Source of the DNA: Escherichia coli
GTDB lineage: Bacteria; Pseudomonadota; Gammaproteobacteria; Enterobacterales; Enterobacteriaceae
Direction: 5' to 3' (one strand)
Length of the DNA stretch: 64,000 bases
Assembly (NCBI RefSeq): GCF_041886205.1
Contig: NZ_CP169029.1
The notes under the pieces are model-generated. The model was not told where the DNA came from and did not search any database. It saw nothing but the letters and a program-made list of their open reading frames with translations. Position 1 is the first letter of the stretch. Each line of letters opens with the position of its first letter. Shown here piece by piece: positions 1 to 40,127 of this stretch. The translations under genes and the position numbers were made by a program.

Positions 1-4126
<4,126 letters not shown>

Positions 4127-4289
4127 TTAAACGGCTTAACAAAAATCCAGTAATATGGATTAAAAAGCAGACTAAACCCCAAATATTTCTTATGTTTTAC
4201 TTTAGACCTATTCACGGTGGTTATTGTGTGCAAATACGCCTCTTGTTACAACCTTAACCCCAATGACCGATTTTCGGGAGAGCGACACC

Positions 4290-4931
4290 ATGAGTTTATT
4301 TGATAAAAAGCATCTGGTTTCCCCCGCCGATGCCCTGCCTGGACGTAACACCCCGATGCCCGTAGCCACGCTGCATGCGGTCAACGGTCACTCAATGACC
4401 AATGTACCTGACGGAATGGAGATTGCCATTTTTGCGATGGGTTGTTTCTGGGGTGTGGAGCGTCTGTTCTGGCAGTTACCCGGCGTTTACAGCACCGCCG
4501 CAGGCTATACCGGCGGCTATACGCCAAAAAATCCGACTTATCGGGAAGTGTGCTCCGGTGATACGGGTCATGCCGAAGCGGTACGCATTGTTTACGATCC
4601 TTCCGTCATCAGCTATGAGCAGTTGCTACAGGTATTTTGGGAGAATCACGATCCCGCCCAGGGAATGCGTCAGGGCAATGACCACGGCACGCAGTATCGT
4701 TCAGCGATTTATCCGCTGACCCCAGAACAGGATGCCGCAGCTCGCGCCAGTCTGGAACGTTTTCAGGCGGCGATGCTTGCCGCCGATGACGATCGTCGCA
4801 TCACCACGGAAATCGCTAACGCCACACCGTTTTATTATGCCGAAGATGACCACCAGCAATATCTGCATAAAAACCCGTATGGTTACTGTGGAATTGGCGG
4901 AATTGGCGTCTGTCTGCCGCCGGAAGCATAG
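4290..4931 (+). CDS. msrA: peptide methionine sulfoxide reductase MsrA
   Basis: ORF 4224..4931, start taken at internal ATG ([24 protein letters not shown]); GCFWG motif present. Confidence 0.93.
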
Positions 4932-4978
4932 CGTTACGGGTACAAATGTAGATTGTCGATAAAGTGCTATTTGTCTAT

Positions 4979-5079
4979 GCCGGATGCGGCGTAAACGCCT
5001 TACCAGGCCTACAAAATCGTCCAAATTCAATATATTGCATGGACTGCGTAGGCGGCCTGATCGGCATAGCGCATCAGGC
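4979..5079. repeat. REP/BIME-type extragenic palindromes (two inverted REP units)
   Basis: tgccggatgcggcgtaaacgccttaccaggcctac followed by inverted gtaggcggcctgatcggcatagcgcatcaggca. Confidence 0.7.
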
Positions 5080-5256
5080 AGTTTTGCATTTATTAGCAGC
5101 CTGAATTTTAACCCTCTGGCGGCTTTACAGTACCTTACGCTATACTAGCCACTGAAAATGCCGGTTCACTTTCTTCGAATCGGCTTTCAATGTGTATTTC
5201 ACACAAATTAATCAACTTCCCCTTCCGAGGATCTGGCCTGAAAGGTCGGATAAGAT

Positions 5257-6603
5257 ATGTTAAACAGTATTTTAGTCATACTCTGCTTGATCGCTGTAAG
5301 TGCGTTCTTCTCGATGTCCGAGATCTCACTTGCCGCCTCACGCAAAATCAAACTTAAACTGCTGGCTGATGAAGGCAATATAAATGCCCAACGCGTTCTG
5401 AATATGCAGGAAAATCCCGGCATGTTCTTTACCGTGGTCCAAATCGGTCTGAACGCAGTGGCGATTCTCGGCGGTATCGTCGGTGATGCGGCATTTTCTC
5501 CAGCTTTTCACAGCCTGTTCTCCCGCTATATGTCGGCAGAGCTCTCTGAGCAACTGAGCTTTATTCTCTCTTTCTCGTGTTAGTGACTGGCATGTTTATC
5601 CTGTTTGCGGATTTAACCCCGAAACGCATCGGTATGATTGCGCCAGAAGCTGTGGCTTTGCGTATCATCAACCCGATGCGCTTCTGCCTGTACGTTTGCA
5701 CCCCGCTGGTGTGGTTCTTCAACGGCCTGGCGAACATGATCTTCCGTATTTTCAAACTGCCAATGGTACGTAAAGATGACATCACTTCTGATGACATCTA
5801 CGCGGTAGTGGAAGCCGGTGCGCTGGCGGGCGTGTTACGTAAACAGGAACACGAGCTGATTGAAAACGTCTTTGAGCTGGAATCCCGAACCGTTCCGTCT
5901 TCAATGACACCGCGTGAAAACGTGATTTGGTTTGATCTCCACGAAGATGAGCAAAGTCTGAAGAATAAGGTGGCGGAACATCCGCACTCTAAGTTCCTCG
6001 TCTGTAATGAAGATATTGACCACATCATCGGCTATGTCGATTCTAAAGACCTGCTGAACCGCGTGCTGGCTAACCAAAGCCTGGCACTGAACAGCGGCGT
6101 ACCAAATTCGCAACACGCTGATTGTGCCGGATACGTTAACCCTTTCAGAGGCGTTGGAAAGTTTTAAAACCGCAGGTGAAGACTTCGCGGTGATCATGAA
6201 CGAGTACGCGCTGGTGGTGGGGATCATCACCCTCAACGACGTGATGACCACGCTGATGGGCGATCTGGTCGGTCAGGGTCTGGAAGAGCAGATTGTCGCC
6301 CGTGATGAGAACTCATGGCTGATTGACGGCGGCACTCCGATTGACGACGTCATGCGCGTGCTGGATATTGACGAGTTCCCGCAGTCGGGCAACTACGAAA
6401 CCATCGGCGGCTTTATGATGTTTATGCTGCGTAAGATCCCGAAACGCACCGATTCGGTGAAATTCGCCGGCTACAAATTTGAAGTGGTGGATATCGATAA
6501 CTACCGCATCGACCAGCTGCTGGTGACCCGGATCGACAGCAAGGCCACCGCCCTTTCGCCAAAACTGCCTGACGCTAAAGATAAAGAAGAAAGCGTCGCG
6601 TAA
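5257..6603 (+). pseudogene. ytfL: ytfL (UPF0053/CNNM-type inner membrane protein, CBS + CorC domains); two frame breaks (near 5576-5580 and near 6100-6125)
   Basis: Three consecutive plus-strand ORFs 5257..5583, 5577..6167, 6124..6603 in frames 1,0,1; tandem GT duplication tcgtgtta at first junction. Confidence 0.8.
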
Positions 6604-6871: not shown

Positions 6872-7198
6872 TGTTATCTCCTGCTGAGTATTACGCCTGT
6901 GCGGTGCCACAATCGGCCCAACTATTATGAGGCGCAAATTTTAATGCTTAGTGACTATAGACTATCCGGGCAATGTTTCCACCGCGTATAACTTTTTTTA
7001 CCTAAAGGTTACAATTATTCAGAATTATCTTTTTACCGAAGCGCGGTCTTCAGTATAAGCATTCATTTTTCATATGATTTGTGCGCTTGACCGCAAACTG
7101 GCATCACACTTGCGGGAAATTCGATAAATAGCACATATTATGATTAAAACTCAGACCCAAGTGGTCGGATCACCTGCATATCATAAGAAGGAAACACC

Positions 7199-7754
7199 AT
7201 GACCCTACGCAAGATTCTGGTACTCACCTGCCTGCTGTTGCCGATGATGGCTTCCGCACATCAGTTCGAAACCGGTCAGCGAGTGCCGCCGATTGGCATT
7301 ACCGATCGTGGCGAGTTGGTGCTTGATAAAGATCAGTTTAGCTACAAAACCTGGAACAGCGCGCAGTTAGTGGGAAAAGTGCGAGTACTGCAACATATTG
7401 CTGGTCGCACCTCTGCAAAAGAGAAAAACGCGACGCTGATTGAAGCGATTAAATCAGCGAAGTTACCGCACGATCGTTACCAGACCACCACCATTGTTAA
7501 CACCGACGACGCAATTCCGGGTTCCGGCATGTTTGTGCGCAGCAGTCTGGAGAGTAATAAAAAGCTTTATCCCTGGTCGCAGTTTATTGTCGATAGCAAT
7601 GGCGTCGCGCGCGGTGCCTGGCAGCTGGATGAAGAAAGTTCCGCTGTGTAGTGGTGCTGGATAAGGATGGTCGCGTGCAATGGGCCAAAGACGGGGCGCT
7701 CACTCAGGAAGAGGTGCAGCAAGTGATGGACCTGCTGCAAAAGTTGCTCAAATA
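7199..7754 (+). pseudogene. ytfJ: ytfJ (periplasmic YtfJ-family protein) with frameshift near 7645-7650
   Basis: ORF 7199..7651 ends ...EESSAV then continues VVLDKDGRVQWAKDG... in another frame to 7754; extra TG (ctgtgtag) at junction. Confidence 0.8.
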
Positions 7755-7817
7755 ATGGCAACAACATAGAGTCTGCAAAAATAATATTCCCCTGTCGATA
7801 CCTATGGGATAGGGGAA

Positions 7818-8757
7818 TTAAGTGTATGAGTTCTTACGCCGAACTAATACTGGTAACGCTAGTTGCTCTTTTTTAAACGCCTCAATGGTAGATTTATATT
7901 TCTCGCAAATCTCCTCTTCGGTAATATCACTATCTACCGCCAGATTCGCACTTACTATCGCATCCACTTGTTCGGCTAATTCCACTTGTTGGCAACCTGC
8001 ATTAACCAGAAAATTATAAATAAGAGAGTAATCTTCATCCTCCAAAACAACAAAGGAACCATTACGAAAACGTTCATCCCCTCCATAGATTGTAAGTACA
8101 GAGCCCAAAGATTCTATGACTATGGCAAAATTATCATCAATTATTTTTTCGTAAATAAATATACCATCCATCGCATTCTTTAATTCCACCTCCTGGTATT
8201 TGGAGTTCAAATTTACCCCGTTTTAATTTGCTTACTATATCCTCCAATAAGGCATAACCTAAAGACACGTCACCAAACGCCTGGCGAATATAACCTTTAA
8301 TCCTTTTCGGTATGTCAGACTGTTTTTTCGGTATGTCAGACTGTTTTTTCTGTAAAATATCCCAGGCATACAATCTTCTGTTTTGTTCTAACGGAAACTC
8401 GCGGTTTTTGAAATCCATGAATGAGTTATACTCATTTATTGTTATGGGAATTTCTTCGTATTCAAACCCACTGCCTCGCAATGTCATTGTATATTCGGCA
8501 CCGTTATCTTTAAGGCTGAAACTGATAAGAAACTTATCCATGGCGTTAACAGTTTCATTTTTTGATGAAAGTACCTGATAACTATTTTTATCAATCTGAG
8601 TTGCGCAACGAAAGAACTCCCTCAAAGTTAAGAGGCTATCATAATTCGAAACCCAATCTTTTTCCCTCCTAAATGCATGCTGAATATTATTAAAAAATTG
8701 TTTGAATGTGTTTTTGTATGCGATGATTTTACAAATAACTCCACCGCACCAATAAAA
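7818..8757 (-). pseudogene. ytfI: ytfI-like hypothetical protein, reading frame broken (overlap 8137-8210; no in-frame start found at 5' end)
   Basis: Minus-strand ORFs 7818..8210 and 8137..8625 overlap in different frames; low-GC, AT-rich; 5' limit approximate. Confidence 0.55.
8306..8347 (-). repeat. Perfect 21-bp tandem duplication inside ytfI-like ORF (encodes KKQSDIP x2)
   Basis: ttcggtatgtcagactgtttt repeated twice head-to-tail. Confidence 0.9.
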
Positions 8758-8994
8758 TTATTGTGTCTGATCCTGGGTAACATATGGCCACCTTATTTTA
8801 TTTGGTTATTTTATGTCGCCATTAAATATCTCATTATAGAAGTAAACTATCAAAAAACGCTCATTATTAAAATGTAACTTATTAGCAATTGAATTTTTGC
8901 ACTTTAAATACAATCTCTTTTTATTTATAACTTTTTAGGTTGGGAGAAATCAGGATGGCAGAATCAGGAAATACACTGTTTCTGCCATCTGAAT

Positions 8995-9742
8995 TTAGTA
9001 AATAGACACTCTGAACCCCGGATTCAGGAACGACTCGCGCGGAGTGTAATCCAGCGGTTTACCCTGCCAGTCGTGAACGTGCGCTCCGGCAGCTGCAGCC
9101 ACAGCATGTCCAGCGGCGGTGTCCCAAATATTCGTTGGTCCGAAGCGCGGGTACAGCTGCGCCTGTCCTTCCGCCACCACCAGGCAGAATTTCAGCGAAG
9201 AGCCGATGGACGTGGTCTGATGTTCGCCAAGCTGTTGCAGATACTCTTTCAGCTCCGCATCTGCATGGGAACGGCTGATAACCACCAGCGGCGGGCGCGC
9301 ATCGCGGACCTGAATCTGCTTGCGCACACCGCACTCTTCTTTCCAGGCTTTACCTTCTGCCGCGCTGTACATTACGTTCATTACCGGCGCATACACCACA
9401 CCTAAAATCGGTTTGCCGTGATCGATGAGCGCAATGTTAACGGTGAATTCGCCATTACGTTTAATAAACTCTTTAGTACCATCCAGCGGGTCTACCAGCC
9501 AGTAACGCTGCCAGTGCTGACGGACTTCCCAACCGGGAGGATCTTCTTCAGAAAGGACCGGAATATCCGGTGTCAGCGTACGTAAACCGTCCATGATAAC
9601 GGTGTGTGCGGCAATATCCGCTGCCGTTACCGGAGAATTGTCCGCTTTGCTGACGACGTCCATCGGTTTCGCCCCGTCGTAGACCTACCTGCATAATGGC
9701 ATCGCCTGCATTCCGTGCAAGCTGGCATACTTGATCTAACAT
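8995..9742 (-). pseudogene. cysQ: cysQ (3'(2'),5'-bisphosphate nucleotidase) with 4-bp tandem duplication frameshift after codon 19
   Basis: ORF 9548..9742 MLDQVCQLARNAGDAIMQV then frame change; main body 8995..9663; minus-strand AGGTAGGT (plus 9683-9690). Confidence 0.85.
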
Positions 9743-9931
9743 TTCTCCACCTCGTCTCTGTGAGCGGTGTTAACTTATTGTTTTACTTATACCCTATCGT
9801 TAATGAATGCGCCAACTGTGATAGTGTCATCATTTTCAAAGCGTAAAATTGTGGCATTCTTCACTGTTCTATAAGTAAGACGTTTATTCTCCCTTTTCTT
9901 TCGTATTCCCGATGATAAAAGGATGTCCCTG

Positions 9932-11882
9932 ATGATTAAGTTTAGCGCAACGCTCCTGGCCACGCTGATTGCCGCCAGTGTGAATGCAGCGACGGTCGAT
10001 CTGCGTATCATGGAAACCACTGATCTGCATAGCAACATGATGGATTTCGATTATTACAAAGACACCGCCACGGAAAAATTCGGACTGGTACGTACGGCAA
10101 GCCTGATTAACGATGCCCGCAATGAAGTGAAAAACAGCGTACTGGTCGATAACGGCGATTTGATTCAGGGGAGTCCACTGGCCGATTACATGTCGGCGGC
10201 GAAAGGATTAAAAGCAGGTGATGTTCATCCGGTTTATAAGGCGCTGAATACGCTGGATTACACGGTCGGTACACTCGGCAATCATGAATTTAACTACGGT
10301 CTGGATTACCTGAAAAATGCGCTGGCGGGAGCGAAATTCCCTTATGTAAATGCCAACGTCATTGACGCCAGAACCAAACAGCCAATGTTTACACCGTATT
10401 TAATTAAAGATACCGAAGTGGTCGATAAAGACGGAAAAAAACAGACGCTGAAGATTGGCTATATTGGCGTCGTGCCGCCGCAAATCATGGGCTGGGATAA
10501 AGCTAATTTATCCGGAAAAGTGACGGTGAATGATATTACCGAAACCGTGCGCAAATACGTGCCTGAAATGCGCGAGAAAGGTACCGATGTCGTTGTCGTT
10601 CTGGCGCATTCCGGGCTATCTGCCGATCCGTATAAAGTGATGGCGGAAAACTCAGTTTATTACCTCAGTGAAATTCCTGGCGTTAACGCCATTATGTTTG
10701 GCCATATGCTCACGCCGTTTTCCCAGGTAAAGATTTTGCTGATATCGAAGGGGCTGATATCGCGAAAGGCACGCTGAATGGTGTTCCGGCGGTAATGCCG
10801 GGCATGTGGGGCGATCATCTTGGGGTGGTCGACTTACAACTCAGTAATAACAGCGGTAAATGGCAGGTGACGCAGGCGAAAGCGGAAGCACGGCCGATTT
10901 ACGACATCGCCAATAAAAAATCCCTCGCGGCGGAAGACAGCAAGCTGGTAGAAACACTCAAAGCCGATCACGATGCCACACGCCAGTTCGTCAGCAAGCC
11001 AATCGGTAAATCCGCCGACAATATGTATAGCTATCTGGCGCTGGTGCAGGACGATCCGACCGTGCAGGTGGTGAACAACGCGCAAAAAGCGTATGTCGAG
11101 CATTACATTCAGGGCGATCCGGATCTGGCAAAACTGCCGGTGCTTTCAGCTGCTGCACCGTTTAAAGTTGGTGGTCGCAAAAATGATCCGGCAAGCTATG
11201 TGGAGGTGGAAAAAAGGCCAGTTGACCTTCCGTAATGCCGACGATCTTTATCTCTACCCCAATACGCTGATTGTGGTGAAAGCCAGCGGTAAAGAGGTGA
11301 AAGAGTAGCTGGAGTGCTCCGCCGGACAGTTTAACCAGATTGATCCTGACAACACGAAACCACAGTCACTCATCAACTGGGATGGTTTCCGCACCTATAA
11401 CTTTGATGTGATTGATGGTGTGAATTATCAGATTGATGTTACCCAGCCTGCCCGTTATGACGGCGAGTGCCAGATGGTTAATGCCAATGCGGAAAGGATT
11501 AAGAACCTGACCTTTAATGGCAAGCCGATTGATCCGAACGCCATGTTCCTGGTTGCCACCAATAACTATCGCGCTTACGGCGGCAAATTTGCCGGTACGG
11601 GCGACAGCCATATCGCTTTTGCTTCACCGGATGAGAACCGCTCGGTGCTGGCAGCGTGGATTGCTGATGAGTCGAAACGTGCGGGGGAAATTCACCCGGC
11701 GGCAGATAACAACTGGCGTTTTAGCACCGATAGCTGGCGATAAGAAACTGGATATCCGTTTCGAAACCTCTCCATCAGATAAAGCCGCGGCGTTTATTAA
11801 AGAGAAAGGGCAATATCCGATGAATAAAGTCGCGACCGATGATATCGGGTTTGCGATTTATCAGGTGGATTTGAGTAAGTAA
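9932..11882 (+). pseudogene. cpdB: cpdB (2',3'-cyclic-nucleotide 2'-phosphodiesterase/3'-nucleotidase) with about 3 frame breaks
   Basis: ORF fragments 9923..10777, 10795..11235, 11408..11743, 11517..11882 in frames 2,1,2,0; AT duplication catat at 10703-10707 at first junction. Confidence 0.85.
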
Positions 11883-11899
11883 TACACTTCTTTTTCGGC

Positions 11900-12003
11900 C
11901 TATAAATCATCAACCGCATCCGGCACTTTTGTCGGATGCGATGCTGGCGCATCTTATCCGCCCTACAAGTCATGAACCGTAGGCCGGATAAGCGCAGCCG
12001 GCA
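11900..12003. repeat. REP/BIME-type palindromic repeats between cpdB and ytfH
   Basis: cggatgcgatgctggcgcatcttatccgccctac ... gtaggccggataagcgcagccggc. Confidence 0.65.
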
Positions 12004-18421: not shown

Positions 18422-18522
18422 ATGAAGGGTCAACCAAAAGCCAGCTAAGGATTGTCTCTTTGATGACCTTACGTCTGGCTTCCAGTGCCTGGGGGGAAAC
18501 CATACTGATATGTTGACATCCT

Positions 18523-18542
18523 CCACGCCCTGAAGGACGTGG
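18523..18542 (-). repeat. Right-end subterminal hairpin of IS200/IS605 element (13 nt downstream of tnpB stop); candidate omega-RNA / TnpA recognition structure
   Basis: Top strand CCACGTCC-TTCA-GGGCGTGG, 8-bp stem with one G-T wobble. Confidence 0.6.
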
Positions 18543-18555
18543 ATCCCTGCTACGT

Positions 18556-19764
18556 TCAGGCTGTCGCCTGAATCATTTCGGTGGGTTCCTGCTTCAACGA
18601 GCGGCCTGACTGCACCATCTCTCCACAGGCAAGAACGGCGTGCCCCGCCGCTAAAATGTTACGAGCGCCATTTACATCGGCGTTCGCTGTATATCCACAT
18701 GCCTGGCATCTGAATTTACTTTGTGACAGGCGATTTTCTTTCGCTGTATGACCACAGCACGCGCATCGCTGGCTTGTGTACGCTGGCGGAACAGCAAGCA
18801 CCTGACCGCCACGCCAGAGCTGCTTGTACTCAAGCTGGCGGCGCATTTCATACCAGCCCTGATCCAGTATCGTACGGTTTAAACCTGATTTTGCCCGGAC
18901 ATTGCGACCCGGCTGGCTGACCGTACCCGCTGCTGACTTTGACATGTTGCTGACCTTCAAATCCTCAATGACTATCATTGCGTGGTTTTTGCTGACGGTC
19001 GTTGTGACTTTGTGAAGGTAGTCCCTGCGGATATTTGCGATACGGGAATGCAGTCGCTGTATTTTGCGTTCCTGCTTCTGCCAGTTATTGCTGAATTTGA
19101 CCTTGCGGCTTAACTGTCGCTGAAGTCTCGCCAGCTTCTTCTGGTTTTTCTGAAAACTGTTTACAGGCTCAAAGACTGTGCCATCTGACAGCGTGGCGAG
19201 TTTAGCCACGCCAGCATCCAGCCCGACCATTGATGCTGAAGGGTGAACCGGAGTTGATACTTCACTTTCTGTCTGAATACTGATGTACCACTTACCGCAG
19301 GACTGGCTGACAGTGACATTTTTCACAACTCCCGTGACCTGACGGCTATTCCGGTAGCGCATCCAGCCCAGTTTCGGCAGAAAAATACGGCTGTTTTCCT
19401 GATCGAGCTTAACGCCCTGCGGGTAGCGGAATGCATCATTCTGTCCCCGCTTTTTGAATCGGGGAAAAGCAGCCCGCTTCTGGAAGAAGTTTTTGTAAGC
19501 CCGCTCAAGGTCTTTCAGTGACTGTTGCAATGGCTGTGACGGGGCATCTTTAAGCCATTGCGTTTCAGTGGCATTTTTCCACTCAACCAGCCAGGAAGCC
19601 ATTTTTCCGTAAGGGATGTATTTATTACCGGCCTCATGATTCTCATTCTGACGTGCCAGAGCACGATTGAAAACGAAACGACATGCGCCTGCGAAGCGCC
19701 TCATTTCACGCTCCTGTTGACCACCGGGTCTTAACTGGAATTTAAATGCCTGTAGTCGTTTCAC
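18556..19764 (-). CDS. tnpB: TnpB (IS605 OrfB) RuvC-like RNA-guided endonuclease, 402 aa, apparent GTG start
   Basis: RuvC-I D in [10 protein letters not shown], RuvC-II E in [11 protein letters not shown], zinc finger CACCGH...CQACGY, RuvC-III D in ADVNGARNI. Confidence 0.85.
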
Positions 19765-19771
19765 AGGCCAA

Positions 19772-20386
19772 ATGATACTTTGGTCTGTGAAAAAAGAAAC
19801 CGATATCCGGCGTGGAAGGCATTGTGTTTTCCTGATGCATGTTCACCTGGTCTTTGTCACCAAATACCGACGCCAGATTTTTGACCATGACGCGACAGAA
19901 AAACTACGCACTTACTTTTCAAAGGTATGTGCTGATTTTGAAGCTGAACTGGTTGAAATGGATGGCGAACCAGATCACGTCCATTTGTTAATTAACTATC
20001 CTCCCAAACTGGCGATATCCAGTCTGGTAAACAGCCTCAAAGGCGTATCGGGTAGGTTACTGCGACGAGATCGACCAGATATTGCAGTCAGGTATTACTA
20101 CAAAGGCGTTTTGTGGAGTCCTGGCTATTTTGCCAGTAGCTGCGGAGGTGCGCCAATATCCGCCATCCGTCAATACATTGAACAACAGCAAACACCTGGT
20201 CAGGTGGAAAACCGCGCCGTATATCCCCGCCCTGAAGGACGGGGTTTTACGGCGCACCGGATAAACCAGGCCAAGCGTATGCTGGTTGATCCAATAATAT
20301 CCCCCAAGCGCAGCAATATTAATATTCACCTGCAATGGGTCGATATCTGGCTTAAAAATATTGTGTTTCTTTCCTTCATCCAATAA
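19772..20386 (+). CDS. tnpA: TnpA, IS200-type HUH Y1 transposase; ORF lacks a stop inside the predicted element and reads through the left end
   Basis: KYRR motif, HUH motif DHVHLLI, C-terminal Tyr in AIRQYIEQQ; start ATG only 7 bp from divergent tnpB start; functional protein probably ends near 20230-20260. Confidence 0.75.
20225..20244 (-). repeat. Left-end subterminal hairpin of IS200/IS605 element
   Basis: Top strand CCCCGTCC-TTCA-GGGCGGGG; shares loop and 12-nt core with right-end hairpin. Confidence 0.6.
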
Positions 20387-20604
20387 GGATTCCATTAACT
20401 GCAAGTGCGCATGGTTAATTTCTAAGAGACGCTGTGATTTTGCATAATGCACACCTTTACTTTGATTTTCACTATGCACAATTTTTAAAAACCACGGGTT
20501 AGCAATATAATAATCCCATGTAAAATCAATAATTTTCTCAATGGCTTTTTGTGGCTGGTTAACCAGATGATTAACAAACGCACCGATACCGACAGCGTAG
20601 AATA
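20245..20604 (-). pseudogene. ytfA: ytfA remnant: C-terminal portion of a possible TetR-like regulator, no N-terminal HTH or start; 3' end runs into the IS element
   Basis: Open frame ...[77 protein letters not shown]... preceded by stop; continues antisense through tnpA 3' region. Confidence 0.5.
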
Positions 20605-21037
20605 ATTACATACCGCACAACAAGAATGTATGGTGTAAGGCGTGGAAGTCATTTTCTTCCCGGGTGCATCGTTATATCCGTGATGAGCGATTTTTGATAT
20701 TAATATCTTTCACCATCCGCTATTTTTACTACTTCAGAAAACAAACTTATTTTTATTAATATCGATTCTTTTTCTGTAAGCATTTAACTACGATATTTAT
20801 AAAAACATTAAACAGGTAACATTACAATGACATTACCAACGACTATTTATTCATTTCGTGCATATTTACCTCGTTTTTCGTCCACCGACAAACCAGTAAA
20901 ATTAAAATTTCATGAATATGCCCGTGCTACATTACTGCCAAATCGTGGAAGAGATCATAATTGCGATGGCAGACGTACTGTTGTGAACCGCCCCGGGAAT
21001 CCTGGAGACTAAACTTCCTGAGAAAGAGGTAAACAGG

Positions 21038-21364
21038 ATGACTAAAAATACTCGTTTTTCCCCCGAAGTCCGTCAACGGGCAGTCCGTATGGTTCTGGAA
21101 AGTCAGAGCGAATATGACTCACAATGGGCGACAATTTGTTCCATTGCTCCAAAGATTGGCTGTACGCCGGAGACTCTGCGTGTCTGGGTTCGCCAGCATG
21201 AGCGGGATACCGGGGGCGGTGATGGAGGGCTCACCACCGCTGAACGTCAGCGTCTGAAAGAGCTGGAACGTGAAAATCGTGAACTGCGCCGCAGTAACGA
21301 TATCCTTCGCCAGGCTTCCGCTTATTTTGCGAAGGCGGAGTTCGACCGCCTCTGGAAAAAATGA
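21038..21364 (+). CDS. IS629 OrfA (HTH transposase subunit, 108 aa)
   Basis: [31 protein letters not shown]...; leucine-zipper-like C-terminus. Confidence 0.9.
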
Positions 21365-22251
21365 TGCCACTGCTGGATAAGCTGCGTGAGCAGTACGGGG
21401 TCGGACCGCTATGCAGCGAACTGCATATTGCCCCGTCAACGTATTACCACTGTCAGCAACAGCGACATCATCCGGATAAACGCAGTGCCCGTGCGCAGCG
21501 CGATGACTGGCTGAAGAAAGAGATACAGCGCGTATACGATGAAAATCACAAGGTATACGGTGTGCGTAAAGTCTGGCGTCAGTTGTTACGGGAAGGTATC
21601 AGAGTGGCCAGATGCACTGTGGCACGTCTCATGGCGGTTATGGGACTTGCCGGTGTTCTCCGGGGTAAAAAGGTCCGTACGACCATCAGCCGGAAAGCCG
21701 TTGCCGCAGGCGACCGCGTAAACCGTCAGTTCGTGGCAGAACGACCTGACCAGCTGTGGGTGGCTGATTTTACTTACGTCAGCACATGGCGGGGCTTCGT
21801 CTATGTGGCGTTCATCATTGATGTGTTTGCCGGATACATCGTGGGGTGGCGGGTCTCATCGTCCATGGAAACGACATTCGTGCTGGATGCACTGGAGCAG
21901 GCGTTATGGGCCCGTCGACCGTCCGGCACGGTCCATCACAGTGATAAAGGTTCTCAGTATGTATCGCTGGCCTACACACAGCGGCTTAAGGAAGCCGGAT
22001 TACTGGCATCAACAGGAAGTACAGGCGACTCGTATGACAACGCGATGGCGGAGAGCATCAATGGTCTTTACAAAGCGGAGGTAATACACCGTAAGAGCTG
22101 GAAAAACCGTGCAGAAGTGGAACTGGCCACACTCACGTGGGTGGACTGGTATAACAATCGACGATTGCTGGAAAGGCTGGGCCATACTCCTCCGGCAGAA
22201 GCAGAAAAAGCTTATTATGCTTCCATCGGAAACGATGATCTGGCAGCCTGA
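21361..22251 (+). CDS. IS629 OrfB (DDE integrase/transposase catalytic subunit, 296 aa); overlaps orfA, typical -1 frameshift arrangement
   Basis: rve-type core ...[49 protein letters not shown]...[11 protein letters not shown]...[15 protein letters not shown]. Confidence 0.9.
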
Positions 22252-22954
22252 GTTCACAGATAAAACACTCTCCAGGAAACCCGGGGCGGTTCAGTTGAGA
22301 TCCACAAACTAGATCTCTCAGACTGGCAAGCATTCAATAAACTAGCGATGGCGTGTAATGCTTACGATGGAATAACAATGAATGGTGATAATTCTTTTGG
22401 ATGGAACCATGAAGCTACATTAGATAATATTCACGCCCAGAAATACAATAAAGCTTACGCGGGTGCGAGGTTAACCGCAGAACTGAAATATTTATTGCAA
22501 GATGTCGAATCCTTCGAACCCAACAGTAAATACACAATACATGAGGTTGTTTTGGGACCTGGTTATGGTACTCCAGATTATACCGGCCAAACGATAGGAT
22601 ACGTTGTAACCCTTCCTGCCCAAATGCCTAATTGCTGGTCATCTGAACTACCAACAATCGATCTTTATATCGACCAACTTCGCACTGTTACAGGCGTTTC
22701 TAATGCCCTCGGATTCATCATTGCTGCATTGCTAAACGCGTATTCTGATTTACCCCATGATTTGAAAATTGGTCTACGTTCCTTATCAAATTCAGCAGCA
22801 ATCTACTCGGGTTTGGGTTTCGAGCGAGTGCCGCAGGACCGAGACATAAGGAGTGATCGTATGCATCTAACGCCAGCAAACCATCCTGACTTATGGACAC
22901 AAGAGAATGGTGAATGGATCTACTTGCGAAACTAATACCTGACGAAAAATAGAA

Positions 22955-25111: not shown

Positions 25112-25121
25112 ATACGGTTAT

Positions 25122-25673
25122 TCACCGAATTGCGACTTCCGGATCTGGCTCATGAGTAATGCGATTACGTAAGTCGCGGCGCATAATCTCTATTATCCAG
25201 AACCAGAAAATATGCCCCAGGATTTCAGACGCATATTCGTCAAAAGGCAATTGAGTGAGCGGCGGCGTTAAATTCAGCGCCGGGCAAAATATACCGTGGA
25301 CTGCCACTGTCACAATAAGCCCTGCTAATATCCCCTGCCATAATTTCACTTTCGGGAAAATTTCCGCGACAACACAATACCCTATCGCAAAAACCAGTGA
25401 GAAGATGATATGCGTCACCATCACCGGGTTGATAATATGTTCCGAGAATGTGTACACAGTTTGGGTTGGGTTGATACCTAAATAATCTCGTAGAAAGATA
25501 TACGGCGGGTTAAATTCATCGCGACCACCGGAAAATGTGCGCGGTGGCAAGGGGACTTCCGCTCCCCATTTAACAAATGCTGAAATAATTCCTGAAAGTA
25601 CACCCACAAGTAACGCAACGCCATAGCGGCGACGCTGCGGATCCGTTCTGACAAACAATCCTTTGATAGCCAT
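25122..25673 (-). CDS. hypothetical inner membrane protein, YagU/DUF1440-like (183 aa, 3-4 predicted TM helices); not recalled at this position in K-12
   Basis: [47 protein letters not shown]...; hydrophobic segments; family assignment from memory only. Confidence 0.55.
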
Positions 25674-25767
25674 AAAGCACCTGATGTTGATGATTTTATT
25701 AACTGGAGAGGCCCCGGAATCAGACCAATTACATCCCGCAGGAGGTAATAATTCCGGGGCGCACTGC

Positions 25768-26454
25768 TTACTTCTGCCCGTAATAGGCGTTAGGACCGTG
25801 CTTACGCATGAAGTGTTTATTCATGAGGAAGCTGTCGATGTGATTCAGTTGTGGGTTAATACTGCGCGCAATCCACGCCATTTTCGCCACTTCTTCCATC
25901 ACTACCGCGTTATGCACCGCATCGTGAGCATCTTTCCCCCAGGCGAACGGCCCGTGCTGATACACCACAATCCCCGGCGTATGCAGCGGCTCGGCGTCAC
26001 CCAGCGTTTCGATAATCACTTTGCCGGTGTTCAGTTCATACTCGCCCTGCACCTCTTCTTCGCTTAATCCGCGCGTACACGGGATGTCGCCAAAGAAGTA
26101 GTCGGCGTGCGTAGTGCCTAACGCCGGGATCGCCAGCCCCGCCTGCGCCCATGCGGTAGCATGAGTGGAGTGGGTATGGACAATGCCGCCAAGCGACGAG
26201 TAACGACGGTAGAGTTCGAGATGCGTCGCGGTGTCGGAAGATGGGCGATACTCCCCTTCCACCACCCTGCCGCTCATATCAACCACCACCATATCGTCTG
26301 CTTTCATGGTTTCGTAGGCAACGCCGCTGGGCTTGATCACCACCAGCCCGCGTTCGCGGTCGATGGCGCTGACATTGCCCCAGGTAAAGGTCACCAGCCC
26401 GTAGCGCGGCAGATCCATGTTGGCTTCAAATACCTGCTGTTTCAGCTTTTGCAT
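25768..26454 (-). CDS. ulaF: L-ribulose-5-phosphate 4-epimerase UlaF
   Basis: ORF 25768..26502, start at [21 protein letters not shown] (228 aa). Confidence 0.92.
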
Positions 26455-27308
26455 TATGCCGCCTCCACCATGCCAGCTTTGGCCATGCGCGCTTTCACCC
26501 AATCACGCGCTTTCGCCACTTCCGCCGCCGGGTCTTCCGCCGTTTCGCTCCACATCTCAATCAGGTACGGCCCGCAATAGCCACTCTGCTTGAGCGTTTC
26601 GAAGCAACGTTCGAAATCCACCACACCTTCGCCAAACGGCACGTTTTTGAAGACGCCCGGTTTGGTGTCTTTCACATGCACCGCGACGATATGCCCGATT
26701 CCGGCCTGCAACTCCATCTGTACGTCGTTGTCCCACGCCGACAGGTTGCCGATATCCGGGTAGAGCTGGAACCACGGGTTGTTGAGATAGTGCGCGTAAC
26801 CCAGCGCCTTGCTGATGGAGTTCATCAACGGATAATCCATGATCTCCATCGCCAGCGTCACCTGCGCGCGGCTCGCCATCTCAACGCTCTCTTTCAGGCC
26901 GTCACGGAAACGACGACGCGTTTCGTTATTGGCTTCCTGATAGTAAACGTCATAACCCGCCAGCTGGATCACGCGAATGCCAACGTCCTGGGCGAACTGG
27001 ATGGCTTTACGCATAATCTCCAGCCCCTGCGCCCGCACCGCGTCATCTTCGCTGCCCAACGGAAAACGACGATGGGCAGAAAGGCACATGGACGGCACAC
27101 GCACGCCGGTTTCAACAATCGCATTCACCAGCGCCAGACGCTGCTCGCGGCTCCAGTCGAGGCGCGAAAGGCGCTCGTCCGTTTCATCTACCGACATCTC
27201 GACAAAATCAAAGCCCAACGTTTTTGCCAGTTGCAGGCGTTCCAGCCAGCACTCCCCGGCGGGGAGCGCTTTTTCATAGATGCCAAGCGGGATTTGTTTG
27301 GACAACAT
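26454..27308 (-). CDS. ulaE: L-ribulose-5-phosphate 3-epimerase UlaE
   Basis: 284-aa [28 protein letters not shown]. Confidence 0.92.
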
Positions 27309-27317
27309 ATCCGCTCC

Positions 27318-27968
27318 TTAGCCCCACAGTTCAGCGATGGAACGTTTGAACTGACGTGCGGCTTCCACCGGAGAAGCGGCATCACGGATACTACGGCCCG
27401 CGATAAAGACGTGAATCGGAATACCCTTGAACAGCGGCAGATCTTCCAGCGCCAGGCCTCCGGTGACGGTGACTTTGAAGCCCATATCGGAAAGACGTTT
27501 GATCGCGGTGATGTCCGCTTCGCCCCACGCCACGCCTGCGGCCTGCGCGTCACGGCTGCGGTGATAAACCACCTGCTGAATACCTGCGTCGCGCCACTGT
27601 TGCGCCTGTTCCCAGGTCCAGTAACCGGTCAGTTCGATCTGCACGTCGCCGTTAAACTCTTTTGCCACGTCCAGCGCACCTTTGGCGGTGTTGATATCCG
27701 CACAGCAAATTACGGTCACCCAGTCAGCATTGGCTTCGAAGCACATACGAGAAAGAATTTTGCCCGCATCGGCAATTTTGGCGTCTGCCAGCACGATTTT
27801 GTGCGGGTAAAGCGCTTTCAGATCGCGAACCGCACGCACGCCTTCGCCCACGCACAGAATGGTGCCCACTTCGATAATGTCAACTTCTTCGGCAATCAGG
27901 CGAGTGGTTTCGTAGGCGCTATCCATAGTCTGGTTGTCCAGCGCGACTTGCAACATCGGTAATGACAT
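27318..27968 (-). CDS. ulaD: 3-keto-L-gulonate-6-phosphate decarboxylase UlaD
   Basis: ORF 27318..28121, start at [30 protein letters not shown] (216 aa). Confidence 0.92.
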
Positions 27969-27981
27969 CTTCAATTCCTTC

Positions 27982-28446
27982 TTAAGCTGCCGCGTTGGTG
28001 CGGTCAATGAGATCCAGTACTTCCTGCTCGGTACGGCAGGCACGTAAACGGTCGAAATTTTCTTCATCTTCAAACAGGTTGACGATCTGCATGATGCCCA
28101 CTTCCTGGTGCGTGTTGGCATCGACCGCCGCCATGGTGATGAGGATATCCACCGGGTCGTTATCTTCGTGGTTGAACTCCAGCGGCTTTTTCAGCGTCAC
28201 CAGCGCAAAACCGGTTTTCTTAACGCCCTCTTCCGGGCGACCGTGCGGCATTGCCAGGCCTGGTGCGAGCACAAAGTACGGACCATGCTGTTCAACCGCA
28301 TCCAGAATCGCCTGGTAGTAACGCGGCTCGACAACATCCGCCGCCACCAGCAGGTCAACGCCGATTTTTACTGCGTCCTGCCATGTCTCAGCTTCAGCCT
28401 GCAGGCGGATGGATTTATTCTCCGCCAGCGAATCACGTAATTTCAT
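27982..28446 (-). CDS. ulaC: ascorbate PTS EIIA component UlaC
   Basis: 154-aa [29 protein letters not shown]. Confidence 0.92.
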
Positions 28447-28455
28447 GGCGCGTCC

Positions 28456-28761
28456 TTACTTCACATCCTGCGGGAAATGCGCTTTGATCACTTCCAGCAG
28501 TTTCGGGCCAAAATCGGCAGGAGAGAGCATATTGCGCACGCCAACCACGTATTTGTTGCCGGTCACGGTGATTTCGCCCGCAATGTGCGTAGAAGCGATG
28601 ATGATATCCGCGCCGCTCAACTCGCTTTTGTATTCGCCAACCGCGCAGCTATTTACCGTGTGGTCAATGTTTGATTGGGTTAAAAACTGGTCCACTTTCA
28701 TCTTCATGATCATGGAACTGCCTTGTCCGTTGCCACACACAGCCAGAATACGTACGGTCAT
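28456..28761 (-). CDS. ulaB: ascorbate PTS EIIB component UlaB
   Basis: ORF 28456..28767, start at [20 protein letters not shown] (101 aa). Confidence 0.92.
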
Positions 28762-28776
28762 AATCAAAACTCCTTA

Positions 28777-30528
<1,752 letters not shown>

Positions 30529-31593
30529 ATGAGTAAAGTGAAAAGTATCACCCGTGAATCCTGGATCCTGAGCACTTTCCCGGAGTGGGGTAGCTGGTTG
30601 AATGAAGAAATTGAACAAGAACAGGTCGCTTCTGGCACATTTGCGATGTGGTGGCTTGGCTGCACCGGGATCTGGTTAAAATCGGAAGGTGGCACCAACG
30701 TTTGCGTGGATTTCTGGTGCGGCACTGGCAAACAAAGTCACGGTAACCCGTTAATGAAACAGGGTCACCAGATGCAGCGCATGGCTGGCGTGAAAAAACT
30801 GCAGCCAAACCTGCGCACCACCCCGTTTGTTCTTGATCCGTTTGCGATTCGCCAGATCGACGCGGTACTGGCGACTCACGATCACAACGATCATATCGAC
30901 GTTAACGTTGCTGCTGCCGTGATGCAGAACTGTGCTGATGACGTACCGTTCATTGGACCGAAAACCTGTGTGGATTTGTGGATTGGCTGGGGCGTACCGA
31001 AAGAGCGTTGCATCGTGGTCAAACCGGGCGATGTAGTAAAAGTGAAAGACATTGAAATTCATGCGCTTGACGCTTTCGACCGTACTGCACTGATCACCCT
31101 GCCTGCCGATCAAAAAGCGGCTGGCGTACTGCCAGATGGCATGGACGATCGCGCGGTGAACTACCTGTTCAAAACGCCTGGCGGCTCCCTGTATCACAGC
31201 GGCGACTCCCACTACTCTAACTATTATGCGAAGCACGGTAACGAACATCAGATCGACGTGGCTTTAGGTTCATACGGCGAAAACCCGCGCGGTATCACCG
31301 ACAAAATGACCAGCGCCGATATGCTGCGTATGGGTGAAGCCCTGAATGCGAAAGTGGTTATCCCGTTCCACCACGATATCTGGTCAAACTTCCAGGCCGA
31401 TCCGCAAGAGATCCGCGTGCTGTGGGAGATGAAAAAAGATCGTCTGAAGTATGGCTTCAAGCCGTTTATCTGGCAGGTTGGCGGCAAATTTACCTGGCCG
31501 CTGGATAAAGACAACTTCGAGTACCACTATCCGCGCGGTTTCGATGATTGCTTCACTATTGAACCGGATCTGCCGTTCAAGTCATTCCTGTAA
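30529..31593 (+). CDS. ulaG: L-ascorbate-6-phosphate lactonase UlaG (metallo-beta-lactamase fold)
   Basis: ORF 30523..31593, [23 protein letters not shown]; HxHxDH motif [10 protein letters not shown]. Confidence 0.92.
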
Positions 31594-31700
31594 TCTATCG
31601 TTTATACCGGATAGCGTGGAGTAGTTCGCGCTATCCGGCGTAGTATTTCCTGGCTATTTCAAATATCATCTAAAAAAATCAAATTTTATCGGAATAGCTC

Positions 31701-32456
31701 ATGACTGAAGCACAAAGACATCAAATCCTCCTGGAAATGCTCGCACAATTGGGCTTTGTGACCGTTGAGAAAGTCGTTGAGCGTCTGGGAATTTCGCCTG
31801 CCACTGCGCGACGCGATATCAATAAACTTGACGAAAGCGGCAAACTGAAAAAGGTGCGCAATGGCGCAGAAGCTATTACCCAACAGCGCCCGCGCTGGAC
31901 GCCGATGAATCTGCATCAGGCGCAGAATCACGATGAAAAAGTACGTATTGCTAAAGCGGCCTCGCAGCTGGTTAATCCGGGCGAAAGCGTAGTCATCAAC
32001 TGCGGCTCCACCGCGTTTCTGCTTGGGCGGGAAATGTGTGGCAAGCCAGTGCAAATCATCACTAATTATCTACCGCTGGCAAATTACCTGATCGATCAAG
32101 AACATGACAGCGTGATCATTATGGGTGGACAGTACAACAAAAGTCAGTCCATCACTTTAAGCCCGCAGGGCAGCGAAAACAGTCTCTATGCCGGGCACTG
32201 GATGTTTACCAGCGGAAAAGGGCTGACCGCAGAAGGGTTGTATAAAACCGATATGCTGACAGCAATGGCAGAGCAGAAGATGCTGAGCGTGGTAGGGAAA
32301 CTGGTGGTACTGGTTGATAGCAGTAAGATTGGCGAACGCGCGGGAATGCTTTTTAGCCGTGCCGATCAAATCGATATGCTTATCACCGGCAAAAATGCTA
32401 ACCCGGAAATCCTGCAACAACTGGAAGCGCAAGGGGTCAGCATTCTGCGTGTTTAA
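31701..32456 (+). CDS. ulaR: DeoR-family repressor UlaR
   Basis: 251-aa [47 protein letters not shown]. Confidence 0.92.
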
Positions 32457-33202
32457 AGATGCTGGCGGAAAAATGTCACGGCAGCATCTAACGCCTCAGG
32501 CGTAATGCGGTGACGCACGCCTGGCTGCCATGAACAGGTTAGCAGTTTATCCCGTCCCGTCTCGCTTAAGGCCTGCTGCAAACGTAGTGATTCGTCGGCA
32601 GGCACAACGTCATCGTCGAGGCCATGCCACAGCAGTAGAGGTCTGTCACCAAGTTGTTCCAGGTGGTTTGTCGCTTCCCACTCTGCCAGCGGCGCGACAA
32701 TGTTATTGAATTCATTCTGCTGTGCTGCCGTTTCAGGTATCAGCGGTGGAAACAGTGAACGGGCGAGCGATGTAAAATAGCCCGATCCCATCATGCTGGC
32801 GGTACATTTCACCGTGGGGTGGCGAGCGGTAATTCCCAGTGCCGTCATCGCGCCCATCGACGCGCCACCGACTGCCAGACGGTCATCAAGCAGCCAGTTT
32901 TCTTCGGCTATTGCCGCACGTAAAGTACTGAATTCCTGCATACTTTGTAGCAAGATTTGCCAGAATTGATTTAACCGCCGCGCTGCGTCACCACTAAAAC
33001 GGCTACCGTGATCGGGCGCATCCGGCATGATCACCCGCAAACCAGCCTGCGCCAGCGCAACGGCAAAATAGCTATACACCAGACTGGATGAAGTAAAGCC
33101 GTGATAAAAAATTACGCACGGTAACGGGGTATCTTTTTGCCCGACAGGATAAGCATGAAGAACGGGAATATCTGCCAGCTCGCGTGATTCTATTTCAATC
33201 AT
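32453..33202 (-). CDS. yjfP: esterase YjfP (alpha/beta hydrolase)
   Basis: 249-aa ORF, GASMG nucleophile elbow. Confidence 0.88.
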
Positions 33203-33383
33203 CTGTCTCTCCTTTTTGTCTGGTATGACATGAAGAAATCCTTAGCACAAGTTTCTGCTGGCGGTATTAGTTCATAATGTTGAGATGTGGGTTACGCTTT
33301 CGTCACGTTTTCATTCAAAAATCGCGTACCAGGTAACAATTCGGGAACATTCCCCCAAAGTTAAATTAATAAGGCACTACACT

Positions 33384-33713
33384 ATGGTTAGCAGGAAACG
33401 TAATAGCGTTATTTACCGGTTTGCCAGTTTATTATTGGTGTTGATGTTAAGTGCCTGTAGCGCACTGCAAGGTACGCCACAGCCAGCACCGCCAGTAACG
33501 GACCATCCGCAAGAGATTCGCCGCGACCAGACGCAAGGGTTACAGCGAATAGGTAGCGTAAGCACGATGGTTCGGGGTTCTCCGGATGACGCATTAGCAG
33601 AAATCAGAGCGAAAGCTGTCGCTGCAAAAGCTGATTATTACGTTGTCGTCATGGTGGACGAAACCATCGTGACAGGACAGTGGTATTCACAAGCCATTTT
33701 GTACCGTAAATAA
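33384..33713 (+). CDS. bsmA: biofilm stress and motility lipoprotein BsmA (YjfO)
   Basis: ORF 33285..33713, start at MVSRKRNSVIYRFASLLLVLMLSACSA lipobox. Confidence 0.85.
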   Translation: MVSRKRNSVIYRFASLLLVLMLSACSALQGTPQPAPPVTDHPQEIRRDQTQGLQRIGSVSTMVRGSPDDALAEIRAKAVAAKADYYVVVMVDETIVTGQWYSQAILYRK

Positions 33714-33861
33714 ATCAGACAACTTACATAGTCAGCTTTACATTGCTTTGCGTCCCTATGCGTTTACCTGTGCACAATAAATTACCGGCTGGAAGCCTGG
33801 GCGTTTATTACCGCGATGGAATGCCCTGCAACATGTGGGGAAACGAAAAATGGAGCTGACG

Positions 33862-34137
33862 ATGAAACAATTACTTGCCTCACCCTCGCTGCAATTAGTG
33901 ACTTATCCTGCGAGCGCCACGGCACAGTCTGCAGAATTCGCCAGTGCTGACTGCGTGACGGGCCTGAATGAAATAGGTCAGATCTCAGTTAGCAATATTT
34001 CAGGGGATCCGCAGGACGTGGAACGTATCGTGGCGTTAAAGGCCGATGAACAAGGTGCGTCATGGTACCGCATTATTACCATGTACGAAGACCAGCAGCC
34101 TGATAACTGGCGCGTGCAGGCGATACTGTATGCGTGA
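33862..34137 (+). CDS. yjfN: YjfN (DUF1471 small periplasmic protein)
   Basis: ORF 33835..34137, start at MKQLLASPSLQLVTYPASATAQSA. Confidence 0.85.
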   Translation: MKQLLASPSLQLVTYPASATAQSAEFASADCVTGLNEIGQISVSNISGDPQDVERIVALKADEQGASWYRIITMYEDQQPDNWRVQAILYA

Positions 34138-34160
34138 GTGTCATCTACAGCAAATGAACA

Positions 34161-34195
34161 ATGCCGGATGCGGCGCGAGCGCCTTGTCCGGCCTA
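34161..34195. repeat. REP element
   Basis: tgccggatgcggcgcgagcgccttgtccggcctac. Confidence 0.7.
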
Positions 34196-34253
34196 CAATT
34201 TTCACATATTTCATTGAGTTAATCGAAACCAGCGTCGCATCAGTCGTATACGC

Positions 34254-35879
34254 TTACACACACACTCCCCCCGTCGCCCGCAGCAATAAATCATTCTGGA
34301 TCTGCTCTGACAACCGTACGCCGCCGCGCGTATCTAACATCACCTGACACCACGCCTGCGCCATTGGCGGAGAGGCATATTTCAACATTTGCGCACCGCA
34401 GCCCAGCAGGAATAGCTGATGAGTAATCTCTCGCCCCAGTTCTTCAGCTGGCTTACGCAGCTGCTGCTGTAAACGACGAACCGCGCGATCAAAATAGCGA
34501 TCCTGCCCTTTCACTTCCACAAATGCTTCCGACAATAAGTCGTATACGCCCGCTTGCTTATTGAGAACGCGCAGCACATCCAGGCACATAATGTTGCCGG
34601 AACCTTCCCAAATACTGTTTACCGGCATCTCCCGGTAAAGCCGCGGCAGCTCGCTCTCCTCGCAATAACCAATGCCGCCCAGCACCTCCATCGCTTCGGC
34701 CACAAACGGCATACCTCGTTTGCAGATCACAAATTTTGCCGCAGGTGTAAATAAACGCGCCCACAGAGCTTCTTTGGCATCGGCGCGCCGGTCCCACGCT
34801 CGCGCAAGACGAAACAGCAACGCCGTTTGCCCTTCAAGCTGAAGTGCCATGCGACTTAAGACATGACGCATAAGGGGCTGTTGGATCAATGGATTACCAA
34901 AAACATGGCGTTGATGTGCATGATAAATCGCCAGCGAAAATGCACGGCGCATCATGGCATGGCTACCCAGGGCGCAATCAAAACGCGTCATCCCCCCCAT
35001 TTTCAGGATCAGACGAATTCCTTCCCCTTCCTGCCCCAATAACCAGCCAATGGCATCCTGAAACTCCACTTCACAACTGGCGTTAGAGCGATTACCCAGC
35101 TTATCTTTCAGCCGTTCGAGGCGAATCGCGTTGCGTTGCCCGTCAGGCAAAAAGCGCGGCACAAAAAAGCAGGACAAACCGCCCGCGGTCTGCGCCAGCA
35201 CCAGATGCGCATCGCTTTGCGGAACCGAGAAAAACCATTTATGCCCCACCAGCCGATAAGAGCCATCCTCCAGACGCTCTGCGCGGGTGGTGTTGCTCAT
35301 GACATCGGAACCGCCCTGCTTTTCCGTCATTCCCATGCCAATCAACAAACCGCGTTTTTGCCCACCTGGCAATAAGTGAGAATCGTAGCGATCGCTCAAC
35401 AGCGGCGTGGTCCAGTCCTGAAACGGCGTGGGTAACATCTGTAACAACAATGGCGTGGCGGCAAAGGTCATCGTTATTGGACATAACGACCCCGCCTCAA
35501 CCTGTGCGTGCAACATAAAACGCGCCGCGCGCGCCACAAATGCGCCGGAGCGAGCGTCTTCTTCCCAGGCAAGATTGTGCACCCGATTGGTACATAGCGC
35601 CTGCATCAGCAGGTGCCAGGCGGGGTGAAAACGCACATCGTCCAGACGGCGTCCTTGCGCATCGTAGCGCAATAATTCGGGCGGATTCACATTCGCCAGC
35701 CGCCCCAGTTCAAGGGATTCAGCCGTTCCTAACTGCTGACCAATACTGGCTAGAAAATCGCTATCCCAGCCAGCTCCTTCACGCGTTACCGCTTCGCAAA
35801 GCGCGCCATCAGACAGGTATAAGTTGCTGTTATTTAATGGTATAGGTTGATTAAAAACGGTGTGAGTTTGCCAGTGCAC
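34254..35879 (-). CDS. aidB: adaptive-response acyl-CoA dehydrogenase-like protein AidB (apparent GTG start)
   Basis: ORF 34254..35897; VHWQTHTVFNQPIPLNNSNLYLSDGALCEAV... 541 aa from GTG. Confidence 0.9.
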   Translation of the reverse strand: MHWQTHTVFNQPIPLNNSNLYLSDGALCEAVTREGAGWDSDFLASIGQQLGTAESLELGRLANVNPPELLRYDAQGRRLDDVRFHPAWHLLMQALCTNRVHNLAWEEDARSGAFVARAARFMLHAQVEAGSLCPITMTFAATPLLLQMLPTPFQDWTTPLLSDRYDSHLLPGGQKRGLLIGMGMTEKQGGSDVMSNTTRAERLEDGSYRLVGHKWFFSVPQSDAHLVLAQTAGGLSCFFVPRFLPDGQRNAIRLERLKDKLGNRSNASCEVEFQDAIGWLLGQEGEGIRLILKMGGMTRFDCALGSHAMMRRAFSLAIYHAHQRHVFGNPLIQQPLMRHVLSRMALQLEGQTALLFRLARAWDRRADAKEALWARLFTPAAKFVICKRGMPFVAEAMEVLGGIGYCEESELPRLYREMPVNSIWEGSGNIMCLDVLRVLNKQAGVYDLLSEAFVEVKGQDRYFDRAVRRLQQQLRKPAEELGREITHQLFLLGCGAQMLKYASPPMAQAWCQVMLDTRGGVRLSEQIQNDLLLRATGGVCV

Positions 35880-35962
35880 TGTGTCTCCCTCCATCAATGG
35901 CAGTCACCATTAGTATGGTCACTGCCATGGATTCATGACAGAAAGAGATTGCTAAAACATTC

Positions 35963-37126: not shown

Positions 37127-37128
37127 GA

Positions 37129-37767: not shown

Positions 37768-37776
37768 GATCGTCCA

Positions 37777-38175: not shown

Positions 38176-38192
38176 TGTAAACGTCCTTGTAA

Positions 38193-38852: not shown

Positions 38853-38902
38853 ATTTTATCCTTAAAATAGTTGCCAGCCTTGCAGTGAGGCTGGCAAAAA
38901 AA

Positions 38903-39601: not shown

Positions 39602-39619
39602 AAATACCCGTCCTTGTAA

Positions 39620-40021: not shown

Positions 40022-40100
40022 ATATTATTCCATATAGATTAAGTTTAAATATTAATAAAATGAATATTTGCAATACGTAATTATCTTACCAGCTATAGAC

Positions 40101-40127
40101 AAAAAAAAACCATCCAAATCTGGATGG
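40101..40127 (-). terminator. Rho-independent terminator downstream of rlmB
   Basis: ccatcca aatc tggatgg hairpin followed on minus strand by T9. Confidence 0.8.

Follow-up and report, generated by a model that had tools for sequence, protein, structure and literature searches.

The ytfI-like gene in the 64-kb stretch of Escherichia coli DNA analysed here (the window) carries a perfect 21-bp tandem duplication. The reading that we hold to be very probable as a whole is that this is a genuine, inherited, in-frame duplication, a minority natural allele of ytfI (319 instead of 312 aa) that originated by slippage, is probably neutral and is unrelated to the insertions of 1-4 bp found in the same part of the window. 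The two copies of the 21-mer follow each other directly and match without a single mismatch (Table 1), and Tandem Repeats Finder agreed, calling an array at 8304-8354 with a period of 21, 2.4 copies, 96% matches and a score of 95; the surplus 0.4 copy comes from the TTTTC microhomology after copy 2. The only array in the window that outscored it, at 57494-57794, is imperfect (111-bp period, 2.7 copies, 97% matches) and corresponds to three adjacent tRNA-Gly genes annotated in strain D9, so that the preliminary description was right to call the 21-bp repeat the only long perfect tandem repeat in the window. By our own arithmetic, the expected number of perfect 21-bp tandem repeats arising by chance is 64000 x 4^-21, about 1.5e-8, and the repeat is therefore not a chance match. 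The minus-strand ORF 8137..8625 reads ...AWDILQKKQSDIPKKQSDIPKRIKGY... across the repeat, with the KKQSDIP heptapeptide doubled, and since 21 bp amount to 7 codons the repeat is in frame, as had also been described. The alignment does not distinguish which of the two copies is the extra one.

Table 1. Coordinates of the 21-bp duplication, of the surrounding ytfI features and of the periodic short insertions in the window.
Feature	Position	Strand	Remarks
ytfI-like gene	7818..8783	-	counterpart of the intact 960-nt, 319-aa CDS of D9 (WP_000937652.1)
Copy 1 of the 21-bp unit, ttcggtatgtcagactgtttt	8306..8326	-	downstream KKQSDIP
Copy 2 of the 21-bp unit, same as copy 1	8327..8347	-	upstream KKQSDIP
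TTTTC microhomology, first	8304..8308		read from the sequence and the alignment
TTTTC microhomology, last	8346..8350		start of the partial third copy called by Tandem Repeats Finder
TAAA, 4-bp tandem duplication in ytfI	8152..8155		private to the window, frame-shifting; member of the periodic series
CCT, 3-bp tandem duplication in ytfI	8665..8667		private to the window; next member of the series, 513 bp on
A6 run (T6 on the coding strand, codons NNFFNN)	8692..8697	-	7 in intact alleles
Periodic short insertions	213, 774, 1338, 2426, 2950, 3474, 3999, 4526, 5051, 5577, 6102, 7136, 7645, 8152, 8665, 9174, 9683, 10194, 10704, 11210, 11719		

The gene lies between ytfJ (plus strand) and cysQ (minus strand), convergent with ytfJ, and this ytfJ-ytfI-cysQ order is annotated alike in D9, 6EVA, K-12, VE-T9, GF4-3 and M217. 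DNA identity to K-12 was 93.4% over a 1.2-kb ytfJ-ytfI-cysQ query (100% query coverage) and 93.0% over the gene, and the D9-type YtfI protein is 94% identical to that of K-12. When the window's gene was assessed as an orthologue of K-12 b4215, its position and its full-length identity agreed with orthology, and its ORF was found not to be intact. K-12 ytfI (b4215; WP_000937655.1, "protein YtfI", 312 aa, uncharacterised) shares with the window the locus, the sequence of the 21-bp unit and the KKQSDIP motif, but it contains one unit and a single KKQSDIP, whereas the window allele has two units and, in this assembly, frameshift interruptions. The closest intact counterpart is WP_000937652.1, a 319-aa "hypothetical protein" annotated in D9, LHM10-1, ET201 and others, which combines the window's ytfI haplotype with two units; the intact 960-nt CDS of D9 encodes it as KKQSDIPKKQSDIP, and the annotated intact CDSs of LHM10-1 and ET201 encode the same protein. 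With two private insertions and a T-run frameshift discounted, no more than 2 substitutions separate the window's gene from that of D9 over 7700-9000. Unlike the intact WP_000937652.1, the window copy has gone from T7 to T6 in that run, as have 6EVA and wlxctx60, and harbours the two private, artefact-like insertions. As a result of the TAAA insertion and of the base missing from the A run, ytfI is split in the window into three ORF pieces of 51, 162 and 130 aa; the CCT insertion adds 3 bases and leaves the frame itself unshifted.

To follow the two-copy allele in other genomes, we used as query the 42-nt junction consisting of the two units only; one-copy alleles match it over no more than 24 consecutive bases, fewer than the 28-base seed of megablast. 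This junction matched 28 of the 5,426 complete E. coli genomes, always at 100%, and because two strains appear to have been deposited twice, about 26 distinct strains stand behind these records. The ytfI region itself was detected in 1,622 of the 5,426 genomes (megablast, 1.2-kb query) and the gene alone in 1,621 (blastn), which makes ytfI an accessory gene, missing from approximately 70% of the complete genomes; the two-copy allele thus accounts for about 1.7% of those that bear it. The exact two-copy 319-aa protein (WP_000937652.1) is found on 872 public contigs. In the alignment, the window, D9 and 6EVA have two copies and K-12, VE-T9, GF4-3 and M217 one, and a three-copy query returned no record covering at least 80% of it among the 5,426 complete genomes, in which only the one- and two-copy states were seen. 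Every other homologue cluster, all of them from Escherichia and Shigella, has one copy, which indicates that one copy is the ancestral state. The duplication is thus an ordinary minority allele, already present in public databases including RefSeq and common to a small lineage. With regard to the preliminary description, which had left undecided whether the repeat was strain-specific or ordinary, K-12 and most alleles do have a single copy, but an allele shared by 28 complete genomes and 872 contigs is not specific to one strain. Its suggestion of a naturally variable repeat holds insofar as one- and two-copy alleles exist, with a hint of one contraction (see below), but no three-copy allele accompanies them. 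In practical terms, the two-copy junction can serve as a simple marker for a small E. coli clade (28/5,426 complete genomes).

The 21-bp repeat shares the first 12 kb of the window with a second kind of tandem duplication, and the preliminary description had raised the possibility that it was a larger product of the same slippage process. A comparison with D9 brought out 21 insertions of 1-4 bp in the window, located between positions 213 and 11719; each is an exact tandem copy of the adjacent bases, and the other 52 kb have none of this kind. Their spacing is piecewise constant, at about 562 bp (213-1338), 525 bp (2426-6102) and 509 bp (7136-11719), and two gaps of double length in the series fit insertions of zero size. 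A common source, whether an assembly or polishing artefact or a burst of slippage specific to this strain, would account for the location of the 21-bp repeat in the same 12-kb segment and for its being likewise an exact tandem duplication. However, the repeat starts 154 bp after the nearest insertion (8152) and 359 bp before the next (8665), off the approximately 509-bp grid, and while the short insertions are private to the window, the two-copy allele turns up in 28 independently sequenced complete-genome records, those of wlxctx60, 6EVA and D9 among them, besides the 872 contigs encoding its protein. The genome of wlxctx60 is particularly informative here. Over 26000-46000 its identity to the window is about 100%, and over 1-20983 the two differ by the 21 insertions and 5 substitutions, and by nothing else; the strain of the window is a near-clone of wlxctx60 and 6EVA. 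This near-clone has the 21-bp duplication, as well as the T6 run, and lacks all 21 short insertions. The off-grid position of the repeat and its presence in a genome without the short insertions indicate that repeat and series are unrelated, and we regard a common source as extremely unlikely; this part of the preliminary description is not supported.

The regular spacing of the short insertions has no biological explanation and fits the action of a consensus program that splices fixed windows, so that the series is most likely an artefact; a draft made of raw reads and polished in windows of fixed size would be in keeping with the piecewise-constant scale. The default window of the program Racon is 500 bp. 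The paper describing it reports a consensus spliced from non-overlapping windows (PMC5411768). From this correspondence we infer that Racon may have generated the insertions; our literature search retrieved no paper on Racon window-boundary artefacts. According to their positions on the gene maps, the insertions interrupt tamB, tamA, msrA, paeA, ytfJ, ytfI, cysQ and cpdB, the broken ORFs having been listed directly for ytfJ, ytfI, cysQ and cpdB only. The two members of the series that fall in ytfI, TAAA and CCT, are likewise probably artefacts, separate from the 21-bp event. Setting the real polymorphism apart from this anomaly matters, given that the series falsely frameshifts at least 8 genes and makes the first 12 kb of the assembly unreliable; as a warning about data quality, it is more noteworthy than the 21-bp repeat.

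The remaining lesion in the window's ytfI, the 1-bp loss from the A run, shifts the frame near codon 30 and is common to the window, 6EVA, wlxctx60, VE-T9 and M217, the last four of which have ytfI annotated as frameshifted. Its occurrence in the near-clones implies that ytfI would probably be a pseudogene in this lineage even without the artefacts. Hence, with the artefactual insertions discounted, the gene had probably already been lost to a frameshift upstream of the repeat. The same loss is found on different haplotypes, those of 6EVA, wlxctx60 and VE-T9 as well as the M217 type, to which many genomes with 1173-bp matches belong; what recurs here is either a frameshift that arises naturally or an error of sequencing. 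Close to the start of the gene, position 8789 is tri-allelic, with C in the window and VE-T9, T in D9, 6EVA, wlxctx60 and GF4-3, and A in K-12 and M217; this site precedes the ytfI start codon by 6 nt, within a Shine-Dalgarno-like AAGGTGG.

As for the origin of the duplication, one-copy alleles read CC-TTTTC-GGTATGTCAGACTGTT-TTTTC-TG in the alignment, with TTTTC present twice, 21 bp apart, on either side of the unit, and the window allele has it three times, with the middle occurrence at 8325-8329. A unit bracketed by short direct repeats is a classical substrate for replication slippage (slipped-strand mispairing). Duplications and deletions between short direct repeats are familiar from lacI, and slipped-strand mispairing was reportedly treated by Levinson and Gutman in 1987. 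The ytfI repeat resembles the duplications ascribed to this process in being an exact head-to-tail copy of a unit bracketed by TTTTC, of which it would be a typical example. From this microhomology we infer slippage as the source. In the ancestral one-copy allele, with the 5-bp direct repeat on both sides of the unit, a nascent strand that had reached the end of the second TTTTC would have re-paired with the first, so that the intervening 21 bp were copied again. The duplication has since been inherited within one small E. coli lineage that includes the strain of the window.

That the event happened once is suggested by the local haplotype. Among the 28 two-copy records, 27 were at least 99.1% identical over the 1.2-kb query and have the D9-type haplotype; about 53 substitutions in 1.3 kb set it apart from that of K-12. 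An IS cuts short the remaining record, C9, so that the haplotype comparison covers the 27 others. Because the two-copy genomes with full-length matches (27 records) share one ytfI haplotype, a single origin of the allele is likely, as judged from this shared stretch. Multiple origins were also considered and found to be unsupported, with all 28 records alike across the 42-mer and the 27 full-length matches belonging to one haplotype.

Two one-copy genomes bear on the later history of the allele. GF4-3 has one copy, 5 substitutions across ytfI and strongly divergent flanks, and behaves as an outgroup. VE-T9, also with one copy, differs from the two-copy strains at only 4 private sites over approximately 12 kb around ytfI, shares with them an IS609 insertion in a TetR gene, has its right-hand haplotype in common with the two-copy LHM10-1, and has both T6 and 8789C in common with the window. 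This pattern suggests that VE-T9 may have undergone a secondary contraction from two copies to one, although recombination is evident in the region. The region is indeed a mosaic, in which VE-T9 and ET201 switch haplotypes block by block, and together with the divergent flanks and the 5 ytfI substitutions of GF4-3 these switches give some substance to a different history, namely that one copy is ancestral in VE-T9-like relatives and that the two-copy allele, gained once, spread horizontally by recombination. We consider this history possible but rather unlikely, since VE-T9 shows only 4 private sites over about 12 kb and agrees with the window at T6 and 8789C; moreover, it would alter the history of the duplication only, and not its nature.

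The GC content of ytfI is 30-39%, compared to about 50% in its flanks. In the literature the gene appears as an H-NS-bound, strain-specific insert, carried by K-12 but not by SE11 or SE15 (PMC4720273). Profile searches with YtfI against Pfam, NCBIfam and PDB were negative, and when 1.84 billion representatives were searched exhaustively with an HMM, only fragments of YtfI itself came back, and no remote homologue; its homologues are confined to Escherichia and Shigella. Two further matches, one to Cas6b in PADLOC (17.5 bits, about 40 residues, E=7e-4) and another to PHROG 3250 (E=2e-3), were short and weak and were taken as due to chance. An AlphaFold model of the 319-aa protein, built from an 11-sequence alignment, reached a mean pLDDT of 41 and a pTM of 0.28, too poor to place the repeat; this low-confidence model has a coil at 143-153 and a helix at 154-169 (pLDDT 23-28), with the repeat in the coil preceding the helix. 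Inactivated forms of the gene are frequent and comprise frameshifts, an internal stop and disruptions by IS1 or IS4-like elements. Judging from the match lengths, about 19 of the 28 two-copy records appear intact, 3 have the T6 frameshift, 5 are interrupted by IS1 and 1 is truncated by an IS4-like element. ytfI has been struck repeatedly by insertion sequences, with IS1 in at least 7 records and, in C9, a truncation by the IS4-like ISVsa5 accompanied by rearrangement. Taken together, ytfI is an accessory orphan, rich in AT and bound by H-NS, and is frequently found as a pseudogene.

The AT-rich, H-NS-bound, taxonomically restricted and often inactivated condition of the gene, together with the lineage frameshift upstream of the repeat, leads us to consider the duplication as probably selectively neutral. 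Conservation of the KKQSDIP segment across the (very shallow) YtfI family counts against neutrality. An opposite view would be that ytfI is a functional variable-number locus of the contingency type, in which heptapeptide copies are recurrently gained and lost under selection that tunes YtfI. The coexistence of one- and two-copy states would be expected from such a locus, as would the contraction suggested by the nesting of the one-copy VE-T9 among two-copy strains by its flanking haplotype, and the repeat does resemble the VNTRs used in MLVA and the contingency repeats of enterobacteria in being an intragenic tandem repeat whose copy number is polymorphic among strains. It is unlike those loci, however, in having only two states (1 or 2), an in-frame unit and a single haplotype for the two-copy alleles compared, and it is not hypervariable, since none of the 1,622 ytfI-bearing genomes had three copies. 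A unit of 7 codons stays in frame and cannot switch expression, and scans for promoters, terminators and Rfam families detected no promoter-like site, terminator-like site or Rfam family over the 21-bp repeat. Furthermore, the disruption of ytfI in many carriers (3 frameshifted, 5 IS1-interrupted and 1 IS-truncated) argues against selection on the protein. A contingency-type locus is accordingly very unlikely. More improbable still is a version in which the number of KKQSDIP heptapeptides acts as a reversible, selected length switch, gained once and lost in VE-T9, that would tune the spacing between the halves of the H-NS-silenced orphan YtfI. Under the preferred reading, that of a probably neutral duplication, the repeat matters little biologically, being an everyday indel polymorphism that slippage has left in an accessory gene still uncharacterised.

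Several other features of the window were noted in the course of the comparisons. Between cysQ and cpdB, the minus strand has a full-length match to the Rfam sRNA ES239 (157 bits) at 9809-9931. The annotations of 6EVA and wlxctx60 list cpdB (about 9923-11900, plus strand) as a pseudogene that has an internal stop; given this stop in the near-clones, a real cpdB nonsense mutation may exist in the lineage of the window alongside the artefactual frameshifts. At about 18500-20900, a TetR/AcrR regulator gene is interrupted by IS609, an element of the IS200/IS605 family that carries a TnpB gene; this insertion is common to D9, wlxctx60, LHM10-1, ET201 and VE-T9 and is not found in GF4-3. The tnpB gene of IS609 is annotated as frameshifted in D9 and as intact in wlxctx60, and the 11 bp (19685) and 6 bp (20629) that the window has in excess of D9 are also present in wlxctx60. 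A 1.3-kb element at 20984-22293, absent at this site in D9 and wlxctx60, contains two overlapping ORFs of 108 and 296 aa, which we take to be an IS3-family transposase pair. Finally, D9 lacks a segment of about 600 bp between ulaF and yjfY (25112-25714) that wlxctx60 has, with an annotated gene there for a YagU family protein.
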